Positions 2,251-54,468 of a stretch of 64,000 bases of DNA are shown here, piece after piece (the stretch's first letter is position 1; each line of letters opens with the position of its first letter). The DNA lies in NCBI GenBank assembly GCA_045863295.1, contig BTWA01000001.1, positions 106,677 through 170,676 of the forward strand. Direction: 5' to 3'. Under the pieces are notes generated by a model. It worked only from the letters and a program-made list of their open reading frames with translations, had not been told where the DNA came from and searched no databases. The translations under genes and the position numbers were made by a program. This DNA is from Candidatus Hydrogenedentota bacterium (lineage in GTDB: Bacteria > Hydrogenedentota > Hydrogenedentia > Hydrogenedentales > SLHB01).

Positions 2251-3282
2251 TCAGAAATACAGGCCACTATACCATGGGTCATTCGGATAATACCGGTAGC
2301 GGGGAACAAACGGCGTTTCCGGCAACCGGTTGCTGCACCACGGCGGAATATTCAACAGCGGTTCATTCGTATATACGTTCAAACGCATCCAATCCGCGAG
2401 CAATTCGGTATACGGAGGCTTGTTCTGCGGGTTACGGTAGCGCACGAATTCCACGTGACCGTCTTTGTAAAGTACGTTGCCGCCGTATGGCAACTGATGA
2501 TTGGCATTGAATTCGCCGGCTATTGTAAACGTATCGAACAGCACGGGAATCTGCGATTCGGCTACCGCGCCCCGGGCCGGGTTGTTGGCATCGACCGAAA
2601 ACAACCGGTCCACACCGTCCCGCAACCGGAACAACATCGGCGCGCCGCCGGGGCCATGCGGCCCAGCCAGCGGGATGTTGTCCTGCATGAAGTCGACCGC
2701 GCCCCGGGCCATTAAATCGTCGAGGGCTTCAAACATGAACACGAAGTTCTCCTCGGTGACGGCCGCATAGGGAAGGTAGACATATTGTTGGCTGGTGACA
2801 CATTCCACGTCGGGATAGGTGCCGATAAACCGTTCGATGATGGCTGCGTTTCTGGGGTCGCTGGTCATGATGGGTTCGAGGTGCAATTGCCGCTCAAACG
2901 TCATGTCCAGATACCAATCCCGCTCGCCCTCGGCCATGCGTGCAGTATTGGCCGGGCATTCCATGAGGCGGAGATCCGGCAGGTAATCGGGATAAAGCAA
3001 ACGCAAATCGACGGCATAGTTGTTTCGCATCAACGGATTTAACGAATTCCATCCCCAATACGGATTGGGATGGCCGGGCGGGTATATGCTCTGGTTGTCG
3101 TGGGCGAACATTTGAAAGGCGATGGCCGCCTGCCGCATGTTGTTCTGGCAGTATGCCTTTCGCGCGGCCATGCGTGCGCGCGCCAACGCCGGCAATAGCA
3201 ATGCGGCGAGGATGGAGATGATAGTAATCACCACCAGCAATTCGATAAGACTGAAGCCGTGCCTGGATTTGGGGCGGATCAT
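2251..3282 (-). CDS. DUF1559-type prepilin N-terminal cleavage/methylation domain protein
   Basis: [31 protein letters not shown]...CQNNMRQ, plus C-terminal NH...[11 protein letters not shown]. Start moved to ATG 3282. Confidence 0.9.
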
Positions 3283-3465
3283 GAGTGTCCTGTCAGAAGC
3301 CAGCGAGCCCACGGCGCTTCTTACCCCCCGCGTGACGCCGTCAACTAGGTCTAAATACGCGCGGTACAGTAGCATAAGAAGGGTGTGCGATCAACCGTTC
3401 ACCACGGCTTACCGGCCCTGGAAGGGTGGGTGAATTGGTACTCAATCCTGGAGTAGACTCTGCTC

Positions 3466-34137: not shown

Positions 34138-34167
34138 TTGACGAGAATCCCGTGGCGGTGGTAGAAT
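34138..34167 (+). promoter_or_regulatory. Putative sigma70 promoter of the pilus cluster
   Basis: TTGACG-N18-TAGAAT with a TG extension, about 60 nt before ATG 34231. Confidence 0.5.
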
Positions 34168-34230: not shown

Positions 34231-36522
34231 ATGCTTTCTTGGCGCCGAGACAAAGATAAAGACAAGGACAAAGCCCCGGCGGTACCCGCTCCACCGGAGC
34301 CGCCGCCCCAGGCGTTCGCGCGTCCTCGAACTGGCACGCGCCCCAACCGGGGACGCTTGGGCGAAGTCCTTGTAGACGAAGGAGTTATCTCCCAGGCTCA
34401 ACTCGACGATGCCCTTCGCCGCCAAAAGGAAACAGGCGGCTTCATTGGCAAAGTCCTGGTCGACGCCGGATTCATTGACCAACGCACCCTAATCGCATTT
34501 CTTGTCAAGCAATGCAAGATTCCCCATATCAGCCTGCTGGACTATGAAATCAACTCGAAATTGTTTGAGCTCGTCCCAAAAGAGTTGTGCTCGAAGCACC
34601 ACCTACTGCCGATCGACAAATTGGGAAAGATTCTGACTCTGGCGATGGTTGACCCGCTGGATGTTGACGCCTTGGAACAGGTCCGGTCTACGTGCCCCGA
34701 CCTGAAGATCAAACCAATCTTGTGCGATTGGTCGCATTTTGAGTCGCTATCAAAGCGATTGTTGGAAGAGGGACCGGCGCAGAGTGCGCAAGAGTGGTCC
34801 AGCCCAGCCTACACGCTCCCGTCCAAACCGGTCGCCAAGGCCGTCCCCGCGCCCGACAAGTCCGCTTCCGCGTCGCCGCCCGTCCCCGAGAAGAAGCCAG
34901 ATGCGGAGGAGGGACACCTCGATCCCTCGGTCATCGACCAGTTGGTAAAAGCCGCACAGGTAGAGGCAACGAAAACCGACGCTCACGCACCTGCGGAAAT
35001 GCCACCCAAACCGGTGAAATTACCAGACATGGCTGCCGGTACGAACGTGGACGCCGTAGCACGCCGTTTAGAAGCCGGTATCGAAAGCCGTATAGCTGCG
35101 GCTATCGAATCGGCTTTGAGCAGGCAAGCGGCCACTGCCGAGCCCAATCCCGTTCCTGTGGCGAGCGACACACTGGAACTCGAGGAACGGATTTCAATTG
35201 CGGTGGCGTCTGCCATGGCCCAGCACGCTCAGGTAGCCGCAGTTTCTCAAGAAGCGCTAAGCCGCATTGAGAAAACGCTCCAAGAACAAGCCGGGCTCCA
35301 TGCGTCCGCGATTGTTTCCACAGCGACAGACGAGTCGTCCCGCGAAAACTTGTTGTTGCAGCTGGAACACCGGCTCCGCGACCACCTTGACCAGACCGTC
35401 TCCGAAGCACTCGAGCGACATGCCCACTTGGCCGCCGAGCATCAGGAGGCTCAAGATCGCTTTGAACACCAGCTGAAGTCACATCTGGAAACTGCGGTTA
35501 CCGAGGCCGTTGAGCGTCAAGTGCAGTCGACGCTCGAACGTGAGGAGACGCTGCTACAAACGGCGGCTCAGCGGGCCGCCGATGCCGCCGCAGCGGTTGA
35601 AAAAGCTCTGGAGGAGATCAAGGCGCTCGAAAAGCCCGCGGAACCGGAATACGACAATGTCATGGCGTTTCCCGTTAGCCAGCCCACCCCGCTCGAACTT
35701 CATCTGGATGGCGGTGTACCGGAACCGGTGCTGGATACGCCAGGCATGTCTATTGCCGCCGAAGGCCTTTCCGTCCATTTTCCGGACCTACCCAAGTTAA
35801 AGACGCGCCTGACCTTCAAGCGTTTTCTGTGCGATAGTCATAACCATTTTGCATGGACATTGGCCCAAGCCGTCGCCGATAACCCTGGCAACGCATTCAA
35901 TCCACTTTACCTGCACGGTGGTCCCGGCTTGGGGAAGAGTCACCTCCTGAATTCCGTGGGCCTCCGCCTGGCGGGACGAAACGATGCTTCTCGTATCGTG
36001 GCTTTGACAGGGAACCGGTTTTTGCAGGGTTATCGTAAGGCTTTACAAGATAACAGCTTAGAGAGTTTTCGCCACCTGCTGATGCAATGCGAGATGGTCT
36101 TGTTTGACGATCTCCAAGCCTTGGCAAATCATCATGAGGCCCAAGAAGAACTGATCGACTTTCTCAATGCCATGGAGTCCAGTTCCCGGCAGTTGGTGCT
36201 TGCTGGGGATAAGCGGCCCGACCATATGGCCGGCTTCGATCCCCGTATAATATCGCGACTGAGCGGCGGAGTGACGGTGCGGCTGCAAGCTCCCGATTTG
36301 GAGACGCGGATGGGCCTCCTGCAACGGCAAGCGCGCGAAGAGAAAACGTTGGTCCCGGAAGAGACGATAGCCCTTATTGCCGACCGGATCCCCTCCGACA
36401 TACGGGCGATGATGGGTGCATTGAGAAAACTCACCGCGTATGCGAAACTGATGAAGCAGGAACTCACCGCCGATACGGCCGTTGAGTGGCTCCGCCGTTT
36501 GGGCGTAGTGGACGCGGCCTGA
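34231..36522 (+). CDS. MshEN/T2SSE-N domain fused to a DnaA-type AAA+ ATPase (no DNA-binding domain IV)
   Basis: RLGEVLVDEGVISQAQLDDALRRQ (MshEN), then LVP...C.KH.LLPI...LAMVDPLD. C-terminal TF..F....N..A...A.AVA.NPG..FNPLYLHGGPGLGKSHLL, VLFDD, QEE, RIISRL..G, PDLETR, DIR...GAL. Confidence 0.85.
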   Translation: MLSWRRDKDKDKDKAPAVPAPPEPPPQAFARPRTGTRPNRGRLGEVLVDEGVISQAQLDDALRRQKETGGFIGKVLVDAGFIDQRTLIAFLVKQCKIPHISLLDYEINSKLFELVPKELCSKHHLLPIDKLGKILTLAMVDPLDVDALEQVRSTCPDLKIKPILCDWSHFESLSKRLLEEGPAQSAQEWSSPAYTLPSKPVAKAVPAPDKSASASPPVPEKKPDAEEGHLDPSVIDQLVKAAQVEATKTDAHAPAEMPPKPVKLPDMAAGTNVDAVARRLEAGIESRIAAAIESALSRQAATAEPNPVPVASDTLELEERISIAVASAMAQHAQVAAVSQEALSRIEKTLQEQAGLHASAIVSTATDESSRENLLLQLEHRLRDHLDQTVSEALERHAHLAAEHQEAQDRFEHQLKSHLETAVTEAVERQVQSTLEREETLLQTAAQRAADAAAAVEKALEEIKALEKPAEPEYDNVMAFPVSQPTPLELHLDGGVPEPVLDTPGMSIAAEGLSVHFPDLPKLKTRLTFKRFLCDSHNHFAWTLAQAVADNPGNAFNPLYLHGGPGLGKSHLLNSVGLRLAGRNDASRIVALTGNRFLQGYRKALQDNSLESFRHLLMQCEMVLFDDLQALANHHEAQEELIDFLNAMESSSRQLVLAGDKRPDHMAGFDPRIISRLSGGVTVRLQAPDLETRMGLLQRQAREEKTLVPEETIALIADRIPSDIRAMMGALRKLTAYAKLMKQELTADTAVEWLRRLGVVDAA

Positions 36523-36636: not shown

Positions 36637-38358
36637 GTGCCCCCAAAAATTGCCAAACGCCGCTTAGGCGACGTACTCCTCGAACAAAACCTAATCACCC
36701 GGGAACAACTGGACGAGTGCCTGAATGTTCAACGGCAAACGGGCCAGAGCCTTGCCCACGTGCTTCTCACCAAGAAGTATTTGAGCGAGGAAGATCTAGT
36801 CATCACGCTCAGCGAACAGCTTGGAATTCCCCACATCCGCGTTGCGAACTACAACATTCACGAGGAAGTCCTGAAGGAAGTGCCCGAGACGCTCGCGCGT
36901 CAATACCTGATGCTTCCGGTCTCCGTGACCGGGGATGTCCTGACGCTGGCCATGGCCGATCCGCTGAACATCATGGCGCTCGATGATCTCCGAATGTTGA
37001 CCAGTTACGAGATTGAGCCGGTGGTGGCCGTGGAATCCGAGTTGATGGAGGCCATTAACAAACACTATGGCGGCAACAAATCGGCCGAATTGTACAACGA
37101 ATTAGTAACGGACGATCGCCAGGACAGCCTCGAAGTACTGGAAGAGAAAGACACGATTGAAGATATTGCCTCCAACGAAGCGGAAGCCCAGGACGCGCCA
37201 ATTGTCCGGCTTGCAAATCTAATACTCGTGAATGCGCTTGAGGCGAGGGCAAGCGATATCCACATTGAACCGTTTGAAAAAGTATTGCGTGTCCGGTATC
37301 GCATCGATGGCATGCTTGAAGAGACGAAAAGCCCGCCCAAGTCCATGCAAGCGGCGCTTATTTCCCGCCTGAAAATCATGTCGAATCTCGATATTGCCGA
37401 ACACCGCTTGCCGCAGGACGGGCGATTCAGAATCAAGTACCGTGCAAAGGAAGTCGACTTCCGCGTATCAATTCTACCCTGTTACTATGGCGAAAAAGTT
37501 GTGATGCGCGTGCTCGACAAGAGCAGCCTGACACTCGATTTGGATGGACTGGGTTTTGAGCAGCAGCCGATGGATGCGTTTCGCGACGCACTTCAACGGC
37601 CTTACGGCATGATTCTAGTTACCGGTCCCACGGGCAGCGGCAAAACGACCACGCTCTATAGCGCCCTGCATAAATTGAACGATCCCGACACCAATGTCGT
37701 GACGGTTGAGGACCCCGTTGAATACGAACTTTTCGGCATCAATCAGGTGCAATGCAAGCCAGAAATCGGCCTAACCTTTGCCGCTTCCCTACGAAGCATT
37801 CTCCGCCAGGATCCGGATATTGTCATGGTCGGTGAAATCCGCGACGAAGAAACGGCGGATATCGCGATTAAGGCAGCTCTGACGGGGCACCTTGTGCTGA
37901 GCACGTTGCATACGAACGATGCGGCCAGCGTGTTTACCCGTCTGGTTGACATGGGCATGGAGCCCTTCCTCGTGCAGTCGTCAGTGGTACTGGCGTCCGC
38001 GCAGCGGCTTATGCGGCGCATTTGCCCGGAATGCAAAGAACAGATTCGCGTACCGGACGAAGTTCTGGAACGGATTCAATTCAAGCCTGAGGCGGGATCG
38101 CCCACGCCAACGTGGGTGCGCGGCCGAGGCTGCAGCAAATGTAAGAATACCGGCTACCGGGGCCGTCTGGCGGTGCTTGAAGCCATGCCGGATTACCTTG
38201 AGTTGCAGGAATACATTATGAAGCGCGCGCCATCGTCCGAAATCAAACGGATTGCCATGGAGTGCGGCATGCGTTCGCTGCGTCAAAATGCCTTGACCAA
38301 AGCCGCGAACGGCCACACTACCATTGAAGAAGTACTGCGAATTTCCGCCGCGGACTGA
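36637..38358 (+). CDS. pilB: Type IV pilus assembly ATPase PilB (GspE/PulE family)
   Basis: N-terminal RLG..L MshEN-like motif, ASDIHIEP, LDIAEHRLPQDGR, GPTGSGKTT, VEDPVEY, LRQDPD, CPEC/CSKC zinc motif. Confidence 0.93.
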   Translation: MPPKIAKRRLGDVLLEQNLITREQLDECLNVQRQTGQSLAHVLLTKKYLSEEDLVITLSEQLGIPHIRVANYNIHEEVLKEVPETLARQYLMLPVSVTGDVLTLAMADPLNIMALDDLRMLTSYEIEPVVAVESELMEAINKHYGGNKSAELYNELVTDDRQDSLEVLEEKDTIEDIASNEAEAQDAPIVRLANLILVNALEARASDIHIEPFEKVLRVRYRIDGMLEETKSPPKSMQAALISRLKIMSNLDIAEHRLPQDGRFRIKYRAKEVDFRVSILPCYYGEKVVMRVLDKSSLTLDLDGLGFEQQPMDAFRDALQRPYGMILVTGPTGSGKTTTLYSALHKLNDPDTNVVTVEDPVEYELFGINQVQCKPEIGLTFAASLRSILRQDPDIVMVGEIRDEETADIAIKAALTGHLVLSTLHTNDAASVFTRLVDMGMEPFLVQSSVVLASAQRLMRRICPECKEQIRVPDEVLERIQFKPEAGSPTPTWVRGRGCSKCKNTGYRGRLAVLEAMPDYLELQEYIMKRAPSSEIKRIAMECGMRSLRQNALTKAANGHTTIEEVLRISAAD

Positions 38359-38431: not shown

Positions 38432-39505
38432 ATGGCCGACATCAGCATGAAAGAACTCCTGGTCCAGATGATCGAGTTGGGGTCCAGCGACCTGCATATT
38501 GTCGTTGGATCTCCGCCGATAGTCCGCGTCAACGGATCGTTGGAGCCGCTCCCCGGGTATCCCCGCCTTCGGCCTGACGATACGCAGGAAGTAATCTACA
38601 GCGTAATGAACGAGGATCAGGTGGCGACCTTCGAAGCCACGCGCGAATGTGACATGTCTTTCGGTTTGGATGGACTGAGCCGATTCCGCCTAAATGTTTA
38701 CCGCGACCGCGGGTCGGTTGTCGGGGCATTTCGTTCCATTCCGTTTGAGATTCGGACCTTTGAAGAACTGGGATTGCCTCGCGTCGTCGCCGATTTCGCG
38801 CACCGTCCATTGGGATTGATACTCGTGTGCGGACCCACCGGCAGCGGTAAATCGACAACGCTGGCGGCCATCATCGACCGCATCAACACAGAGCGGCCAG
38901 TACACATCATCACGGTCGAGGATCCGATCGAGTACCTGCACAACCACAAGACGGCGACCATCAACCAGCGAGAGGTGAACGCGGACACCAATTCGTTCGC
39001 GGCCGCACTGAAACACGTGTTGCGGCAGGATCCCGACGTGATTCTGATCGGTGAAATGCGCGACCCGGAGACCATCTCCGCGGCGCTGACCGTTGCGGAA
39101 ACCGGCCACTTGGTGTTCGCCACGTTGCATACGAATGATGCGGTGCAGACCATTAACCGCATTGTGGACGTGTTTCCTTCCAATCAGCAGGCCCAGATCC
39201 GCACGCAGTTGTCATTCGTGCTGGAAGGCGTGTGCGTGCAACAGTTGATTCCGCGAGCAGACGGCATGGGCCGCGCGCTCGCCATGGAAATCATGTTGCC
39301 GAACACCGCCATACGTTCGTTGATTCGCGAAGAAAAACTGCAGCAAATTCCGTCCATGATTGAAATTGGCGCGGGCGACGGCATGATGACCATGAACCAA
39401 TCGCTGTATCGCCTGATCCGGCGCGGCGTCATCTCGCTCGACATCGCATTCAAGCGGACGATGGATCCGGAAGGGCTGCAGCGGCTCCTCGACAAAGGGA
39501 ATTGA
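38432..39505 (+). CDS. pilT: Type IV pilus retraction ATPase PilT
   Basis: SDLHI..G.PP, GPTGSGKST, LRQDPDVILIGEMRD, AETGHLVFATLHT, AIRSLIRE. Confidence 0.97.
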   Translation: MADISMKELLVQMIELGSSDLHIVVGSPPIVRVNGSLEPLPGYPRLRPDDTQEVIYSVMNEDQVATFEATRECDMSFGLDGLSRFRLNVYRDRGSVVGAFRSIPFEIRTFEELGLPRVVADFAHRPLGLILVCGPTGSGKSTTLAAIIDRINTERPVHIITVEDPIEYLHNHKTATINQREVNADTNSFAAALKHVLRQDPDVILIGEMRDPETISAALTVAETGHLVFATLHTNDAVQTINRIVDVFPSNQQAQIRTQLSFVLEGVCVQQLIPRADGMGRALAMEIMLPNTAIRSLIREEKLQQIPSMIEIGAGDGMMTMNQSLYRLIRRGVISLDIAFKRTMDPEGLQRLLDKGN

Positions 39506-39512
39506 CGCCTCT

Positions 39513-41135
39513 GTGATACGCACAACCCGCACTGAGCCACTCCGGCCTTCCCTGGAAGAATCGGCGGCGTGGCTGTGGGTTGTGGGCGTAATCCGCTTGG
39601 TGCTCATCGCCATCATCGCCTTGGGCGCCTACCTCGTGGGTGGCTTCACGCCCGGTGCGACCCCCTACCTGCTTGGCTTCTATGGCTTCGGCATTGCTGC
39701 CGGTGCCTGGTCCATTTATTCCATCCGAAAAACGCACGCGTACTCGGATCTTCAAACAGTAGCGCAGATGCTGGTGGACTTTGGAGTGGTCGCCGCAACC
39801 GTTAGCTTCACCGGCGGATCCGAAAGCTTTTTTTCATTTCTATTTGTGGTGGTAATCCTGGAGTCCGGCGTACTGCTGGGGCTGGCCCAGGGATTCGCCA
39901 TTGCAACGCTCGCCATGGGCATCATGGGTGTGCACGTGATGACAGCAACGCCGCCGGATGAGTTGCCGGGGGCGCCCGCAGCGTTTGTCAATTCGGCGAC
40001 GCTCTGGTACGACTTCTTTGTGCAAACGCTTGCCTATTACCTGACCGCATCGATCAGTGGGTACTGGAACCAACAGGTCCGCCGGTTGCAACAATTTCAG
40101 CGCGAAATTCTGGACAACATGAACAACGGATTTCTCATCGCCGACAACAGCGGCAACGTGGTGGTCCTCAACAAGGCCGCGGCCCGGATTCTTGAATGCA
40201 GCGAACAGGAAGCCCTGGGAAAACCCGTTCAAAGCATCTTGCGCGATGCATCCGGCGGAGAGTGCCCCGTGGTGACCGCCCTTCGATCCAACCGAGATTT
40301 CACCCGATACGAATTTAACCTGATTGCGCCTTCGACGGCCATCAAGATACTGGGGTTAAGCACCAGCCGGATGTTGGATTGGCGAGGCCGCGCGACGGGC
40401 ATCATTGTCATCTTCATGGACCTCACTGAATTGAACCAGATGCGCGAAGATCTAAAACGCCAGGATCGGTTGGCGGTCGTGGGCGAACTGGCGGCAGGAC
40501 TCGCGCATGAAATCCGCAACCCGGTGGCCGCGATACGCGGAGCAGTCGACGAATTGCAGGACAATCTGCAGAACACGGCCATCGCGGAGAAGCTTGCACG
40601 GCTGGGTCTGCGCGAATGCGATCATTTAAACAAGATCGTGACCGACTTTCTTGAGTTCGCGCGCGAACCCAAATTGCGCCGCGACGTATTCGACGTGCGA
40701 TCGCTCGCGCAAGAAACCGTGGACTCGTTGATGCGTCTGGACAATGACGATGAAGCATTTAAGGTGGCAACCACCTTTCCAAAATCACCCTGCTACGTAT
40801 CCGGCGACGCGGCTCAAATCAAGCAAGTGTTCCTGAATCTGGGAAAGAACGCAGTAGAGGCCATGGGCGGTAAAGGCCAGTTGACCGTCGTTGTCGTGCG
40901 TGACACGGTTTCAATCGAAACTCGTTTTGAAGACACGGGCCCCGGCATCGATCCGGACAAGGTTGCGCGCATTTTTGAGCCTTTCTATACTACAAAAGCA
41001 TCCGGTGTGGGCATGGGGCTTGCCATTTGCCACCGCATCGTTACAGCCCATGACGGAACCATTCGCGCCACGTCGCGCGAAGGCGGGGGGACCACCCTGA
41101 GCGTCCGCCTGCCCGCAACCCGGATCGAGGAGTGA
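39513..41135 (+). CDS. pilS: PilS-like membrane sensor histidine kinase (PAS)
   Basis: Multi-TM N-terminus with D.......V.FTGG.ES.F, a PAS domain, AHEIRNP H-box, and N/G1/F/G2 boxes. Position between pilT and a sigma54 response regulator. Confidence 0.8.
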   Translation: MIRTTRTEPLRPSLEESAAWLWVVGVIRLVLIAIIALGAYLVGGFTPGATPYLLGFYGFGIAAGAWSIYSIRKTHAYSDLQTVAQMLVDFGVVAATVSFTGGSESFFSFLFVVVILESGVLLGLAQGFAIATLAMGIMGVHVMTATPPDELPGAPAAFVNSATLWYDFFVQTLAYYLTASISGYWNQQVRRLQQFQREILDNMNNGFLIADNSGNVVVLNKAAARILECSEQEALGKPVQSILRDASGGECPVVTALRSNRDFTRYEFNLIAPSTAIKILGLSTSRMLDWRGRATGIIVIFMDLTELNQMREDLKRQDRLAVVGELAAGLAHEIRNPVAAIRGAVDELQDNLQNTAIAEKLARLGLRECDHLNKIVTDFLEFAREPKLRRDVFDVRSLAQETVDSLMRLDNDDEAFKVATTFPKSPCYVSGDAAQIKQVFLNLGKNAVEAMGGKGQLTVVVVRDTVSIETRFEDTGPGIDPDKVARIFEPFYTTKASGVGMGLAICHRIVTAHDGTIRATSREGGGTTLSVRLPATRIEE

Positions 41136-41141
41136 GTCCAA

Positions 41142-42533
41142 TTGGGCGCGAAACACCGCGTGCTTGTAGTTGACGACGAAGCCGGCGTGCGCGAACTGCT
41201 GGAAATTGTGCTGTCCAATGCAGGTTACGACGTGGTTGTGCTCGATAGTGTCGTGCCGGCGCGTGAACGGTTGGAGAAAGAAGCCTTCGATCTGGCCATT
41301 ACCGATTTGCGGATGGGCAGTGAACGCGACGCTGGCATGCAATTCCTGTCGTGGCTGCAAGAACATGCCCCCATGACCCCCGCCATCATGATGACTGCTT
41401 ACGGATCGGTCGAGACCGCCATTGAAGCCATGAAACGGGGCGCCGCCGATTACATCATGAAACCGTTCAAAAACGACGAAGTCCGGCTCGTCGTGCAGCG
41501 CGCCATCGAGCAGCGCAACCTCCGGCGCGAAAATCAGGCGCATCGGCGTGAACAGGCCGCCCGCGGCGACATCAGTAACATTATCGGCACCAGCAAAGCC
41601 ATTGAAGAAGTGCGCGACATGATTCGCCGCGTGGCCAAATTGCCGAGCACTGTGGCCATCCACGGTGAAAGCGGTACGGGCAAAGAACTGGTAGCGCGCG
41701 GAATCCACCAGCTTAGCGATCGCGCCACGAAACCGTTTGTCGCCATCAACTGCGGCGGTTTTCCAGAGACCCTCCTCGAGAGCGAGTTGTTTGGACATCG
41801 CAAAGGCTCGTTTACCGGCGCAGTGGATGACAAGGAGGGGTTGTTCGTTGTGGCCGACGGCGGCACGCTGTTTCTGGACGAAGTAGGCGAGATGCCGCTC
41901 TCGCTCCAAGTGAAGCTATTGCGCGTGTTGGACAATAACACCGTGTTGCCCGTGGGCAGCACAACGCCGATCCACGTGGACGTGCGCATCATTTCGGCGA
42001 CCAACCGGAACCTGGAGAAGATGGCCCAGGAAGGCACGTTTCGTGAAGACCTGTTCTACCGTTTGAACGTCATTCCAATCACCGTTCCGCCATTGCGCGA
42101 ACGTTCAGACGACATACCACTCCTGGCGCGCACTTTTGTGGAGCGTCACGCCCGAAAAATGTCCCGTGCCGCCGTTGAGCTTTCGCCTGAGGCCGAATCG
42201 GCCTTGCAGCAGTACAACTGGCCGGGCAATGTGCGCGAATTGATGAACGTACTCGAACGCGCGGTGGCGCTGTGCCGGGACAGCCGAGTGGACGCCGTGG
42301 ATTTGCCGAAGAATATTCAGACCTATCTGGCACCCACGGAAGCGGCCAAGACAAAGCTGCCGGACGTGGGGTTCGATCTTGAAGCCCATATCTCGGACAT
42401 CGAAATCAATTTTATCGAACAAGCACTGCGGAACGCCAAGTATTCGCAAAAGCGCGCCGCGGAATTGCTTGGACTCACGTCGCGATCGCTGCGATACCGA
42501 CTGAAGAAATACGGCCTGAGCGACGAAGATTAA
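41142..42533 (+). CDS. pilR: PilR-like sigma54-dependent response regulator (NtrC family)
   Basis: Receiver domain (LVVDDE, TDLRM), [30 protein letters not shown], Fis HTH with RSLRYRLKK typical of PilR. Confidence 0.85.
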   Translation: MGAKHRVLVVDDEAGVRELLEIVLSNAGYDVVVLDSVVPARERLEKEAFDLAITDLRMGSERDAGMQFLSWLQEHAPMTPAIMMTAYGSVETAIEAMKRGAADYIMKPFKNDEVRLVVQRAIEQRNLRRENQAHRREQAARGDISNIIGTSKAIEEVRDMIRRVAKLPSTVAIHGESGTGKELVARGIHQLSDRATKPFVAINCGGFPETLLESELFGHRKGSFTGAVDDKEGLFVVADGGTLFLDEVGEMPLSLQVKLLRVLDNNTVLPVGSTTPIHVDVRIISATNRNLEKMAQEGTFREDLFYRLNVIPITVPPLRERSDDIPLLARTFVERHARKMSRAAVELSPEAESALQQYNWPGNVRELMNVLERAVALCRDSRVDAVDLPKNIQTYLAPTEAAKTKLPDVGFDLEAHISDIEINFIEQALRNAKYSQKRAAELLGLTSRSLRYRLKKYGLSDED

Positions 42534-51816: not shown

Positions 51817-53235
51817 CTATTCGCCCGGTTCAAGCGGGATGCCCAGCGCCTTCATGCGACGCCAGACCGAAGTCCGAGTAAGGCCCAGCCGCCGCGCGGC
51901 CTCGGCCTTGTTCCAGTCGCACTCCCGCAAGACTTCGATCAACTGATCCTTGGATGCGGACCGGTGCCTGCCGTGGCGCACCGCGCGCGCATACGGCAAC
52001 GCGGCGGGCAACTCGGGCGCCGCGCACATTTTGCTCCGGAGTTCCATGCGCCGGATTTCCAGCGGCAAATCGAACGGTCCAATCAACGGGCCGGGGCAAG
52101 TGACGAATGCATGCTCCACCGCATTCTCCAACTCTCGCACGTTGCCCGGCCAGCAATAGTCCATCATGATGCGCATGGCCTCCGGCGAAAATCCACGAAT
52201 GTCCTTGTTCGTCGATCGACGGAACAGACCGATGAAGTGGTTCAACAGCAGCGGCATGTCTTCCTTGCGCTCCCGCAGCGGAGGCAGAACGACGGGAAAG
52301 ACCTTCAACCGGTAGTACAGGTCTTCCCGGAAATTGCCTTTCTTCACCTCCGCCAGCAAATCCTTGTTGGTGGCCGCAATGATGCGCACGTCGACTCTCC
52401 GGGAGATCGATTCGCCGACGCGTTCCAGTTCGCGCTCCTGCAGAACGCGCAACAACTTCACTTGGATCAAGGGCGGAATCTCGCCAATCTCATCCAGAAA
52501 AATGGTGCCGCCGTCCGCGCGTTCGAACCGGCCTATGTTGTCGCGAATCGCGCCCGTAAACGCACCCTTGACGTGCCCAAACAGTTCGCTTTCCAGAAGC
52601 GACTCGCTGAGCGCCGAACAATTGACCGTGACGATGGGTTTCCCCCGCCGGTCGCTGTTGAAGTGAATCGCTTTGGCAACCAGTTCCTTGCCGGTACCCG
52701 TCTCTCCATAAACAAGCACAGTCACGTTGGAGGCCGCCGCCATCTCCACGAGGTTGTAAAGTTCCTGCATGGGCCGGCTCTTGCCAATCAGACTGTGGAA
52801 TTCGTACCGCTCGGCCACGTGGCGCTGCAGACTGCTGACTTGCTCCTGGAGCTCGCGCACGGGGCTGATATCGGTGAGCGTAATGACCGCCCCCACAGCC
52901 TCGCCATCGGCATCGCGGAGAACCCGGCCATTTGCAATCACCGGCACCTCGGTTCCGTCGCGACGCGCGATCACCGTCTCCACGCGGTTGGCCTCTCCCC
53001 GCGCAAACAATTCGCAATCCATGTTCTCGAAAGGCACGGCCGTCCCTGCGTCGCCTGCTTTGAGAAACGAGCAGGGTTGGCCATACGCTTCATCGCTGGA
53101 ATATCCCGTGAGCCGCTGCATGGCCCGGTTCCATCGTTGAATCCGATGGTCGTTGTCAATGACAAAAACGCCGTCGGCCATGGTGTCCAGGATGGCCGCC
53201 AATTCCAACGCTTCCCGTTCGAATGACTCAATCAC
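51817..53235 (-). CDS. PAS-domain sigma54-dependent transcriptional activator
   Basis: PAS domain, [33 protein letters not shown], Fis HTH. GTG start at 53235 chosen from the RBS. Confidence 0.93.
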
Positions 53236-53376
53236 GGCACGCCCCCTTTCTCCGCAAAGACTCCTTAGTATACAACGAAACCAGGCGCTGTGTACCCCTG
53301 GTTTCAAACCGGACGGAAATGCGCTACAATCGCGCTGTACATTCGTTTGATAGAGAATTGTCCAGGAGGAGCCGCC

Positions 53377-54468
53377 ATGGGCTTGTTTGACATGATCCGG
53401 GGCCAGTTAATTGATGTGATCGAGTGGCTCGATCCGTCCAACGACACAATGGTCTATCGATACGAGCGCCACGACAACGAGATTAAATACGGCGCCAAGC
53501 TGATAGTGCGCGAGTCGCAGGTCGCCGTGTTCATTCACAAAGGCCAACTCGCAGACGTGTTCGCGCCCGGCACCCACACGCTGGAAACGCAGAACATCCC
53601 CATATTGACTACCCTGATGTCATGGCCGCACGGATTCAACAGTCCGTTCAAGGCTGAAGTCTATTTCGTCAACACGAAACGCTTCACCGATCTTAAGTGG
53701 GGCACGAAGAATCCAATCATGTTGCGCGATCCCGAGTTTGGCCCGGTGCGCCTGCGCGCCTACGGCACCTACGCCATCCGCGTCATGTATGCGCCCACGT
53801 TTATCAAGGAGATCGCCGGCACCGATGGCGTGTTCACCTCCGCTGAGATCACGAATCAGTTACGCAACCTCATCGTGGCGCGATTCAGTGACATCCTCGG
53901 GGAAAGCAAGATCCCCATTCTCGATCTCGCCGCGAACTACAGCGAGTTGGGCAAGTTTGTTTCGCAGAACATCATCGACGATTTCGACGCGTACGGACTC
54001 CAGGTCACCGATTTCACCGTCGAAAACATTTCGCTCCCGCCCGGCGTGGAAGAAGCGCTCGACAAACGCACCAGCATGGGCATCCTTGGCGACATGAACA
54101 AATACTCCCAATACGCCGCAGCCAACGCCATGGAAAAAGCCGCCGAAAATCCCGGCGGCATGGCATCCGGCGGCATGGGTATGGCCATGGGCGTGGCTAT
54201 GGCGGGTCAAGTCGCCCAGGCGGCACGCCCCGGAGGTCCACCGCCCGTGCCGGGCTCAGCCGCCGCCAGTTACTTCGTGGCCTCAGGCGGCCAGCAAGCA
54301 GGCCCCTACGATGTGGCGGCCCTGCAAAACCAGGCGCGCGGAGGCCAACTCACCCGTGACACGCTCGTGTGGTGCGAAGGAATGGTCAACTGGGAAAAGG
54401 CAGGATCCGTGCCCGCGCTCTCCAGCGTATTCTCGGCGATGCCGCCTCCATTGCCGCCTTCACCGTAA
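53377..54468 (+). CDS. SPFH (YdjI-like) domain protein with C-terminal GYF_2 domain
   Basis: IDVIEW, LIVRESQ.AVF, FNSPFKAEVYFVN, KWGT.NP, and tail QAGPY...L......G.LT.DTLVW..GM..W. Confidence 0.9.
   Translation: MGLFDMIRGQLIDVIEWLDPSNDTMVYRYERHDNEIKYGAKLIVRESQVAVFIHKGQLADVFAPGTHTLETQNIPILTTLMSWPHGFNSPFKAEVYFVNTKRFTDLKWGTKNPIMLRDPEFGPVRLRAYGTYAIRVMYAPTFIKEIAGTDGVFTSAEITNQLRNLIVARFSDILGESKIPILDLAANYSELGKFVSQNIIDDFDAYGLQVTDFTVENISLPPGVEEALDKRTSMGILGDMNKYSQYAAANAMEKAAENPGGMASGGMGMAMGVAMAGQVAQAARPGGPPPVPGSAAASYFVASGGQQAGPYDVAALQNQARGGQLTRDTLVWCEGMVNWEKAGSVPALSSVFSAMPPPLPPSP

Follow-up and report, generated by a model that had tools for sequence, protein, structure and literature searches.

MshEN domains carry a motif for cyclic dimeric guanosine monophosphate (c-di-GMP) that consists of two 24-residue units, RLGxx(L/V/I)(L/V/I)xxG(L/V/I)(L/V/I)xxxxLxxxLxxQ, with a 5-residue joiner (PMC5013675). 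MshE (PDB:5htl), PilF (6f8l) and PilB (3jc8) all have these tandem units and the 5-residue spacer, followed by an N1 subdomain. In the FimX-PilZ-PilB system of Xanthomonas, a separate c-di-GMP receptor signals to PilB via an adaptor (PMC12943098). Here we describe a gene of Candidatus Hydrogenedentota bacterium that encodes a fusion of MshEN with the AAA+ domain of the replication initiator DnaA. It lies in a stretch of 64,000 nt, below called the window (GCA_045863295.1, contig BTWA01000001.1, positions 106,677-170,676 of the forward strand). The fusion has the same N-terminal arrangement as MshE, PilB and PilF but differs from them in lacking the T2SSE domain, in starting its second motif with Phe and in having four family-specific cysteines. 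It may act on PilB in a manner analogous to FimX, although the domains are unrelated (EAL and PilZ in one case, MshEN and DnaA-type AAA+ in the other) and the link between the fusion and PilB is a predicted one.

The C-terminal half has to be compared with DnaA and with Hda/HdaA, a DnaA paralogue that lacks domain IV and inactivates DnaA. We know of no case in which a DnaA AAA+ module acts outside replication. Like DnaA (B. subtilis 8bv3/8btg and the organism's own copy), the fusion has an AAA+ domain with lid, Walker A and B, sensor I, Arg finger and sensor II. In contrast to DnaA, it is without domains I and IV and without DnaA-box binding, is fused to MshEN, is linked to pilB and belongs to a separate clade; its AID and H/B residues are replaced and its score is below the cut-off of TIGR00362. 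Like Hda, it has no DNA-binding domain attached to its DnaA-related AAA+ domain and retains the Arg finger, but it has no clamp-binding motif, is far less similar to Hda than to DnaA and scores below the cut-off of TIGR03420. On balance, and with modest confidence, we favour a reading in which the fusion senses c-di-GMP in trans and serves the type IVa PilB motor as an accessory regulator with an ATP switch, and is not a replication protein. Architecture, conservation and linkage give good support to a role at the pilus.

The gene and its parts are as follows (window coordinates; aa, residues of the fusion protein; pLDDT, predicted local distance difference test of the structure model):

34231..36522, plus strand: fusion gene, an intact open frame of 763 aa with MshEN, spacer and DnaA-type AAA+ domain
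34354..34512, plus strand: MshEN_N, tandem 24-residue c-di-GMP motifs at aa 42-65 and 71-94 with 5-residue spacer (NF053729)
34513..34764, plus strand: MshEN_C or N1 subdomain, aa 95-178, the predicted PilB-contact surface (PF05157; pLDDT about 90)
34771..35046, plus strand: disordered Pro/Ala-rich linker, aa 181-272 (pLDDT below 50 at aa 181-231 and 241-273)
35047..35628, plus strand: long helical region, aa 273-466, probably serving as coiled-coil spacer (helices 273-302, 314-364 and 368-466 in the model)
35629..35766, plus strand: second disordered linker, aa 467-512 (pLDDT below 50)
35788..36501, plus strand: DnaA-type AAA+ domain III with lid, aa 520-757 (PF00308; pLDDT about 95)
35917..35940, plus strand: Walker A GGPGLGKS, aa 563-570, with K569 equivalent to E. 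coli DnaA K178
36097..36111, plus strand: Walker B VLFDD, aa 623-627, with D626/D627 equivalent to E. coli DnaA D235/D236
36208..36210, plus strand: sensor I Asp660, equivalent to E. coli DnaA D269
36256..36258, plus strand: Arg finger R676, equivalent to E. coli DnaA R285
36403..36405, plus strand: sensor II R725, equivalent to E. coli DnaA R334

An initial annotation, made from the letters of the window alone, had placed MshEN from about aa 42 and a DnaA domain III at the C-terminus, and both were recovered by Pfam and NCBIfam. MshEN (PF05157) matched aa 96-177 (E 5.4e-15, 55.6 bits against a cut-off of 23.1) and Bac_DnaA (PF00308) matched aa 523-683 (E 6.1e-41), while the 53-residue NCBIfam model of the c-di-GMP motif (NF053729) covered aa 42-94 with 62 bits (cut-off 38). 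Among solved structures, the N-terminal part scored 97 bits with T. thermophilus PilF, 73 with M. xanthus PilB and 69 with V. cholerae MshE (5htl), and the C-terminal part 163 bits with B. subtilis DnaA (8bv3), gapless over aa 522-755. Alignment to E. coli DnaA bore out each of the Walker A, Walker B, sensor I, Arg finger and sensor II assignments. The protein was also said to stop where domain IV would start; indeed, its C-terminal end corresponds to residue ~363 of the organism's own DnaA, at the passage from domain III to IV, and neither Bac_DnaA_C (PF08299) nor DnaA_N (PF11638) matched the fusion in Pfam at E<=1. The T2SSE ATPase domain (PF00437) was found by Pfam in the neighbouring PilB but not in the fusion.

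In the AlphaFold2 model (mean pLDDT 73.7), for which a family alignment of 30 rows was used, MshEN (aa 42-178, pLDDT about 90) and the AAA+ domain with lid (aa 520-757, about 95) are the confident parts. The first linker (aa 181-272) is unconserved in the family alignment and contains a short helix at aa 232-246 (block mean pLDDT 53). For most blocks of the helical region the pLDDT is about 61-79, and it drops below 50 at aa 303-313; the Pfam matches of this region were all sub-threshold. Two candidates that fall in this low-conservation spacer were rejected, namely a DUF445 match as a real domain and a TIGR00362 alignment starting at aa 389 as DnaA domain I/II. Met1 of the fusion is nearly invariant in the family alignment.

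We compared the c-di-GMP motifs of the fusion with those of the adjacent PilB. Motif I of the fusion (aa 42-65) fits the published motif at all specified positions, and motif II (aa 71-94) at all except the first, where Phe stands in place of Arg. In MshEN, substitutions of G11 and G40 abolish c-di-GMP binding, whereas a change of Arg9 alters affinity less than five-fold (PMC5013675). Among 52 paired loci, the motif I glycine was present in 51 fusions and in 26 adjacent PilB proteins; for the motif II glycine the counts were 48/52 and 0/52. Held against the published relaxed pattern, PilB fitted at motif II in 0/67 loci and at motif I in 10/67, and the PilB of the window fitted at neither. Three of the 12 MshEN proteins of this genome have both motifs intact and this PilB has none, while the fusion has one intact motif and a second one that fails at its first residue only. 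The organism makes c-di-GMP, judging from 17 GGDEF matches in the genome. Taken together, these patterns suggest that MshEN_N of the fusion binds c-di-GMP and that the PilB encoded beside it no longer does so, given that its motif II glycine is never present. The fusion would then supply in trans the c-di-GMP input missing from this PilB.

Four cysteines of the fusion-type MshEN_C (C95, C120, C155 and C165; window 34513-34764) are invariant or nearly so. The aligned positions in the neighbouring PilB are Leu, Ala, Thr and Ala. These cysteines could be a metal or redox site.

Synteny was surveyed over 80 related loci, of which 68 hold the AAA+ part; the rest are six cut by contig ends and six with a different protein. 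In all 64 loci with at least 700 nt downstream, the next gene was pilB, at a gap of 12-131 nt (median 49). Where at least 7 kb of downstream sequence was available, pilT followed in 38/45 loci, pilS in 38/45 and pilR in 37/45. Ten of 81 genomes had no strong match to the fusion, and five of these were checked. Two fusion-less genomes were also without a PilB orthologue, having only PilB paralogues of 44-45% identity. Another genome (G076, L095:4482-5459) encodes a 325-aa protein with MshEN and helices but without AAA+, directly upstream of a 74%-identical PilB. The proposal that a DnaA-derived ATPase has been repurposed for the pilus thus draws on the invariant position of pilB, the joint absence of fusion and PilB orthologue, the AAA-less version kept beside pilB and the complex model described below.

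To model a complex, full-length PilB (52-row alignment) was combined with aa 40-180 of the fusion (52 rows from the same loci). The score ipSAE (interaction prediction score from aligned errors) was 0.66 (0.70, 0.66 and 0.66 in individual runs), whereas the best of three controls scored 0.00. The runs shared at least 98% of their contacts, and partner pLDDT was at least 83. The ipSAE mark used here is reached by 116/157 solved complexes and by 2/215 mismatched pairs, a calibration that is only rough for custom alignments such as ours. In the model, PilB residues 52-75, 95-103 and 125-132 face fusion residues 85-107, 128-137 and 159-164, so that the N1 (MshEN_C) subdomains of both proteins meet via equivalent strands around a common IPHI motif. 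Interface residues were enriched in invariant positions, with 14/28 invariant compared to 20/113 elsewhere (Fisher p 0.0009); within MshEN_C the corresponding figures were 12/23 and 14/61 (p 0.016). The modelling supports binding to PilB and suggests that N1 of the fusion pairs with the homologous N1 of PilB. The two N domains are 33% identical, i.e. they are paralogues.

An appreciably less probable alternative is that N1 docks on the platform proteins PilM/PilC and competes there with PilB or PilT, with no direct PilB binding; occupancy would then depend on c-di-GMP and on the ATP state of the ring formed by the AAA+ domain. The N domain of the fusion contains both MshEN_N and MshEN_C, complete and of PilB type, and the N1 domain of GspE binds GspL. 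MshEN_C corresponds to the T2SSE N1 domain of the structures 2BH1 and 4PHT (PMC5013675, supplement). The synteny with pilB fits this explanation equally well. However, PilM/PilC genes are absent from the conserved cluster, and the 5 PilM_2 matches in the genome leave the partner ambiguous. The complex test favoured PilB, which was the one partner tried.

We then asked where the AAA+ domain belongs. It scored 42 bits with the Hda structures 3sc3/3bos and 36.5 bits with 5x06, far below its match to DnaA. With the DnaA model TIGR00362 it reached 246.6 bits (cut-off 343.9) and with the Hda model TIGR03420 91.3 bits (cut-off 194.8), i.e. it stayed below both. Identity to the genome's own DnaA was 33% over domain III. 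The genome has three Bac_DnaA matches: a 468-aa DnaA with domains I, III and IV, the fusion, and a third, coiled-coil paralogue. A search with aa 505-763 of the fusion gave 2175 proteins at E<=1e-30. From the best 150 of these and the genome, 92 AAA+ domains were placed in a tree (IQ-TREE quick search, LG+C20); 21/49 fusion representatives and 33/45 representatives of tandem-AAA+ proteins were left out at random, and three further tandem segments failed the length filter. The 32 fusion-family rows formed one group (Shimodaira-Hasegawa-like approximate likelihood ratio test, SH-aLRT, 99). All true DnaAs and the tandem-AAA+ proteins lay across a branch with SH-aLRT 95 from the fusions, while E. 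coli Hda and the third paralogue were long outgroup branches. By this tree, the fusion AAA+ domain groups with DnaA and not with Hda, as a clade of its own.

The tandem-AAA+ relatives, proteins of about 650 aa that have two DnaA-type AAA+ domains in tandem and lack domain IV (e.g. P0123, P0126 and P0138), made up 45 of the best 150 representatives, and one is named from a Gemmatimonadota metagenome-assembled genome. In two giant relatives of 1876 and 1990 aa (P0122 and P0124), MshEN is followed by two DnaA AAA+ domains with a very long coiled coil, rich in Glu and Ala, between them. In the third DnaA-like protein of the genome (L003:1-1953, minus strand), a Bac_DnaA AAA+ domain (49.6 bits) at the N-terminus precedes a coiled coil of more than 500 aa; the open frame of 999 aa runs off the locus, and the neighbouring open reading frame (ORF) looks PP2C phosphatase-like by eye.

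Individual residues were compared between 29 fusions and 19 DnaAs, using the numbering of E. coli DnaA. In DnaA, D269 is sensor I and R334 is sensor II. All 29 fusions retain the Lys of Walker A, the two Asp of Walker B, the sensor I Asp and the Arg residues of the finger and of sensor II. By contrast, R227, an Arg in 19/19 DnaAs, was Cys in 22/29 fusions, and E204, a Glu in 18/19 DnaAs, was Ser in 21/29. The position of R245 was Glu in 24/29 fusions, a charge reversal, and that of V211 was variable. In DnaA, domain III binds single-stranded DNA (ssDNA) via H/B motifs, V211 and R245, R227 is the AID residue and R285 is the Arg finger (PMC10325909). A clamp motif (QL[SD]LF or QLxLxL) was found in 0/30 family members, whereas QLSLPL was detected in the E. 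coli Hda control; its absence from the fusion had been noted from the start. Both patterns stand for the N-terminal beta-clamp-binding consensus of Hda. With the ATP and Arg-finger residues kept, the DNA residues lost and no clamp motif, the AAA+ module looks like an ATP-driven self-association switch that does not handle DNA and is not an Hda.

These data also bear on a possible link to replication, in which the AAA+ domain would cap host DnaA-ATP or hetero-oligomerise with it via the Arg finger, and c-di-GMP or the state of the pilus would modulate initiation. The placement on the DnaA side of the tree, the one-third identity to host domain III and the invariant Arg finger, sensor II and Walker residues are all compatible with it. 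Nevertheless, we consider it improbable. The clamp motif is missing from all 30 family members examined, and the 35 other window ORFs scanned include neither a replication gene nor a pilC or pilM. The R227 and E204 substitutions, the strict linkage to pilB, the retention of an AAA-less variant beside pilB and the SH-aLRT 95 branch that splits the fusion clade from all true DnaAs also speak against it, and the genome has an ordinary 468-aa DnaA besides. The initial annotation had offered two functions: the repurposed pilus ATPase is the one we retain, while the c-di-GMP-gated DnaA mimic acting on replication gained no positive support, given that no replication genes lie nearby, there is no clamp motif, R227 and R245 are replaced and the protein is not Hda-like.

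A combination of both ideas, by our estimate a shade less probable again, would have the fusion bridge the pilus motor and the chromosome cycle: bound to c-di-GMP, it would sit on PilB via N1 while its AAA+ domain co-oligomerises with DnaA-ATP, sequestering or releasing the initiator according to surface or pilus state. More doubtful still is a role in DNA handling at the pilus, with the DnaA-like module binding incoming ssDNA during pilus-mediated uptake. Type IV pili participate in DNA uptake, and DnaA domain III can bind ssDNA via its H/B motifs (PMC10325909). In the fusions, however, the H/B positions are not kept (V211 variable, R245 replaced by Glu in 24/29), and no competence genes were seen in the cluster.

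Returning to the fusion as an accessory regulator of PilB, we propose the following course of events. MshEN_N would bind c-di-GMP and feed the signal in trans to a PilB whose own site has decayed, with N1 of the fusion docking on N1 of PilB. The DnaA-derived AAA+ domain, no longer touching DNA, would serve as an ATP-dependent switch of head-to-tail self-assembly. This self-assembly would cluster or release the bound N domains of PilB, and could thereby gate assembly of the PilB hexamer or its docking at the pilus base.

Several points weigh against this proposal. Motif II starts with Phe in 49/52 fusions, which lies outside even the relaxed published set [RKPN]; by analogy, Phe at this position may be tolerated, because changes of Arg9 alter affinity less than five-fold (PMC5013675). 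In genus g36, two genomes carry a PilB orthologue (61-62% identity) that is degenerate to the same degree but has no fusion upstream, which weakens the case for a strict division of labour between fusion and PilB. The predicted contact may do no more than reproduce a self-contact between N1 domains of PilB-type proteins or a remembered structure, and the conserved interface residues also belong to fold-core strands. With about nine platform proteins and 12 MshEN proteins in the genome, there are several possible PilM/PilC partners for PilB. The window copy sits on a long end branch of the tree (1.45, median 0.47), the role proposed for the AAA+ module is without precedent, and the fusion's binding to c-di-GMP and to PilB, its ATPase activity and its oligomerisation are predictions.

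The fusion family itself is widespread. A search of 5.8 billion proteins gave at least 237 homologues among the scored candidates. All 120 homologues among the matches listed carry MshEN and Bac_DnaA, and most are from Hydrogenedentota; their source names include "ATP-binding protein", "DnaA/Hda family protein" and "chromosomal replication initiator protein DnaA". The same architecture and phylum recur in two ESM Atlas clusters, of 72 and 56 members. A fusion match at E<=1e-100 was obtained in 71/81 Hydrogenedentota genomes, where matches to true DnaA were weaker (about 1e-82 to 1e-89). Short contigs from three other studies were identical in sequence to stretches of the N domain, of the spacer and of the AAA+ part; they tile the gene, and no single independent contig covering all of it was found. 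An assembly chimera or a decaying gene, for which the long branch of the window copy is the sole argument, can be dismissed because the family is widespread in independent assemblies and identical contigs were recovered independently, and the open frame is intact. The fusion is thus genuine.

Literature searches, with subscription-only papers outside their scope, found no description of an MshEN-DnaA fusion, as had been surmised. A DnaA-type output domain is not among the MshEN architectures of Supplementary Table 4 of PMC5013675, and a text search of both supplementary files of that paper did not find DnaA. New here are the loss of the motif II glycine in PilB together with its retention in the fusion, and the N1:N1 complex model. 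What emerges is a phylum-wide copy of the DnaA AAA+ domain that is stripped of every DNA-related part and tied to a receptor for a second messenger and to the motor of a pilus. If the proposed function is true, c-di-GMP would reach PilB by a new route, in which a paralogous head domain acts in trans as a decoy once the site of the motor itself has decayed, and a DnaA-type ATP switch would for the first time have a task outside replication. Hundreds of database entries named "chromosomal replication initiator protein DnaA" would then need correction.

The gene order pilB-pilT-pilS-pilR reported directly downstream of the fusion on the same strand agreed with the domain matches of these ORFs, listed here after a promoter candidate upstream of the fusion gene:

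34138..34167, plus strand: sigma-70-like promoter candidate, TTGACG-18-TAGAAT (10/12 plus extended TG), 64 nt before the ATG, by consensus match only
36637..38358, plus strand: PilB extension ATPase with degenerate c-di-GMP motifs (T2SSE and MshEN)
38432..39505, plus strand: PilT-type retraction ATPase, 357 aa (T2SSE)
39513..41135, plus strand: PilS-like PAS histidine kinase (domain matches)
41142..42533, plus strand: PilR-like sigma-54 response regulator (domain matches)

No terminator-like site was found on the plus strand of the 114-nt gap between the fusion gene and pilB. The sigma-70-like site upstream and this terminator-free gap provide weak evidence that both genes form one operon. Matches to TGGCAC-N5-TTGCW, the sigma-54 promoter consensus, were as frequent as expected by chance (34, expected 35), and none was upstream of the fusion gene. 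One run labelled RNA-Seq was rejected as evidence of expression, as it is probably DNA.

The MshEN subtype of the fusion was also seen in other contexts. In 6/80 loci (L069:9959-11533; also L068, L078, L079, L080 and L083), an MshEN with the sequence LVKQCKIPH and the four cysteines is fused to PAS-GGDEF, which would place a c-di-GMP receptor on a diguanylate cyclase. The gene that follows this PAS-GGDEF fusion encodes a sigma-54 activator, with an N-terminal part read by eye as GAF-type. In genome G029 (L098:2082-3860, minus strand), a 592-aa protein has an MshEN 48% identical to that of the DnaA fusion, followed by a cyclic-nucleotide-binding (cNMP) domain.

The genome as a whole is unusually rich in secretion and pilus ATPases and in c-di-GMP signalling: in addition to the MshEN (12), PilM_2 (5) and GGDEF (17) matches, it has 18 T2SSF half-domain matches (about nine platform proteins). 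Elsewhere in the window, positions 2251-3375 (minus strand) encode a protein of 374 aa whose N-terminus carries a methylation (pilin-type) motif, 51817-53307 (minus strand) a PAS sigma-54 activator and 53290-54468 (plus strand) an SPFH/Band-7 protein with a GYF_2 domain.

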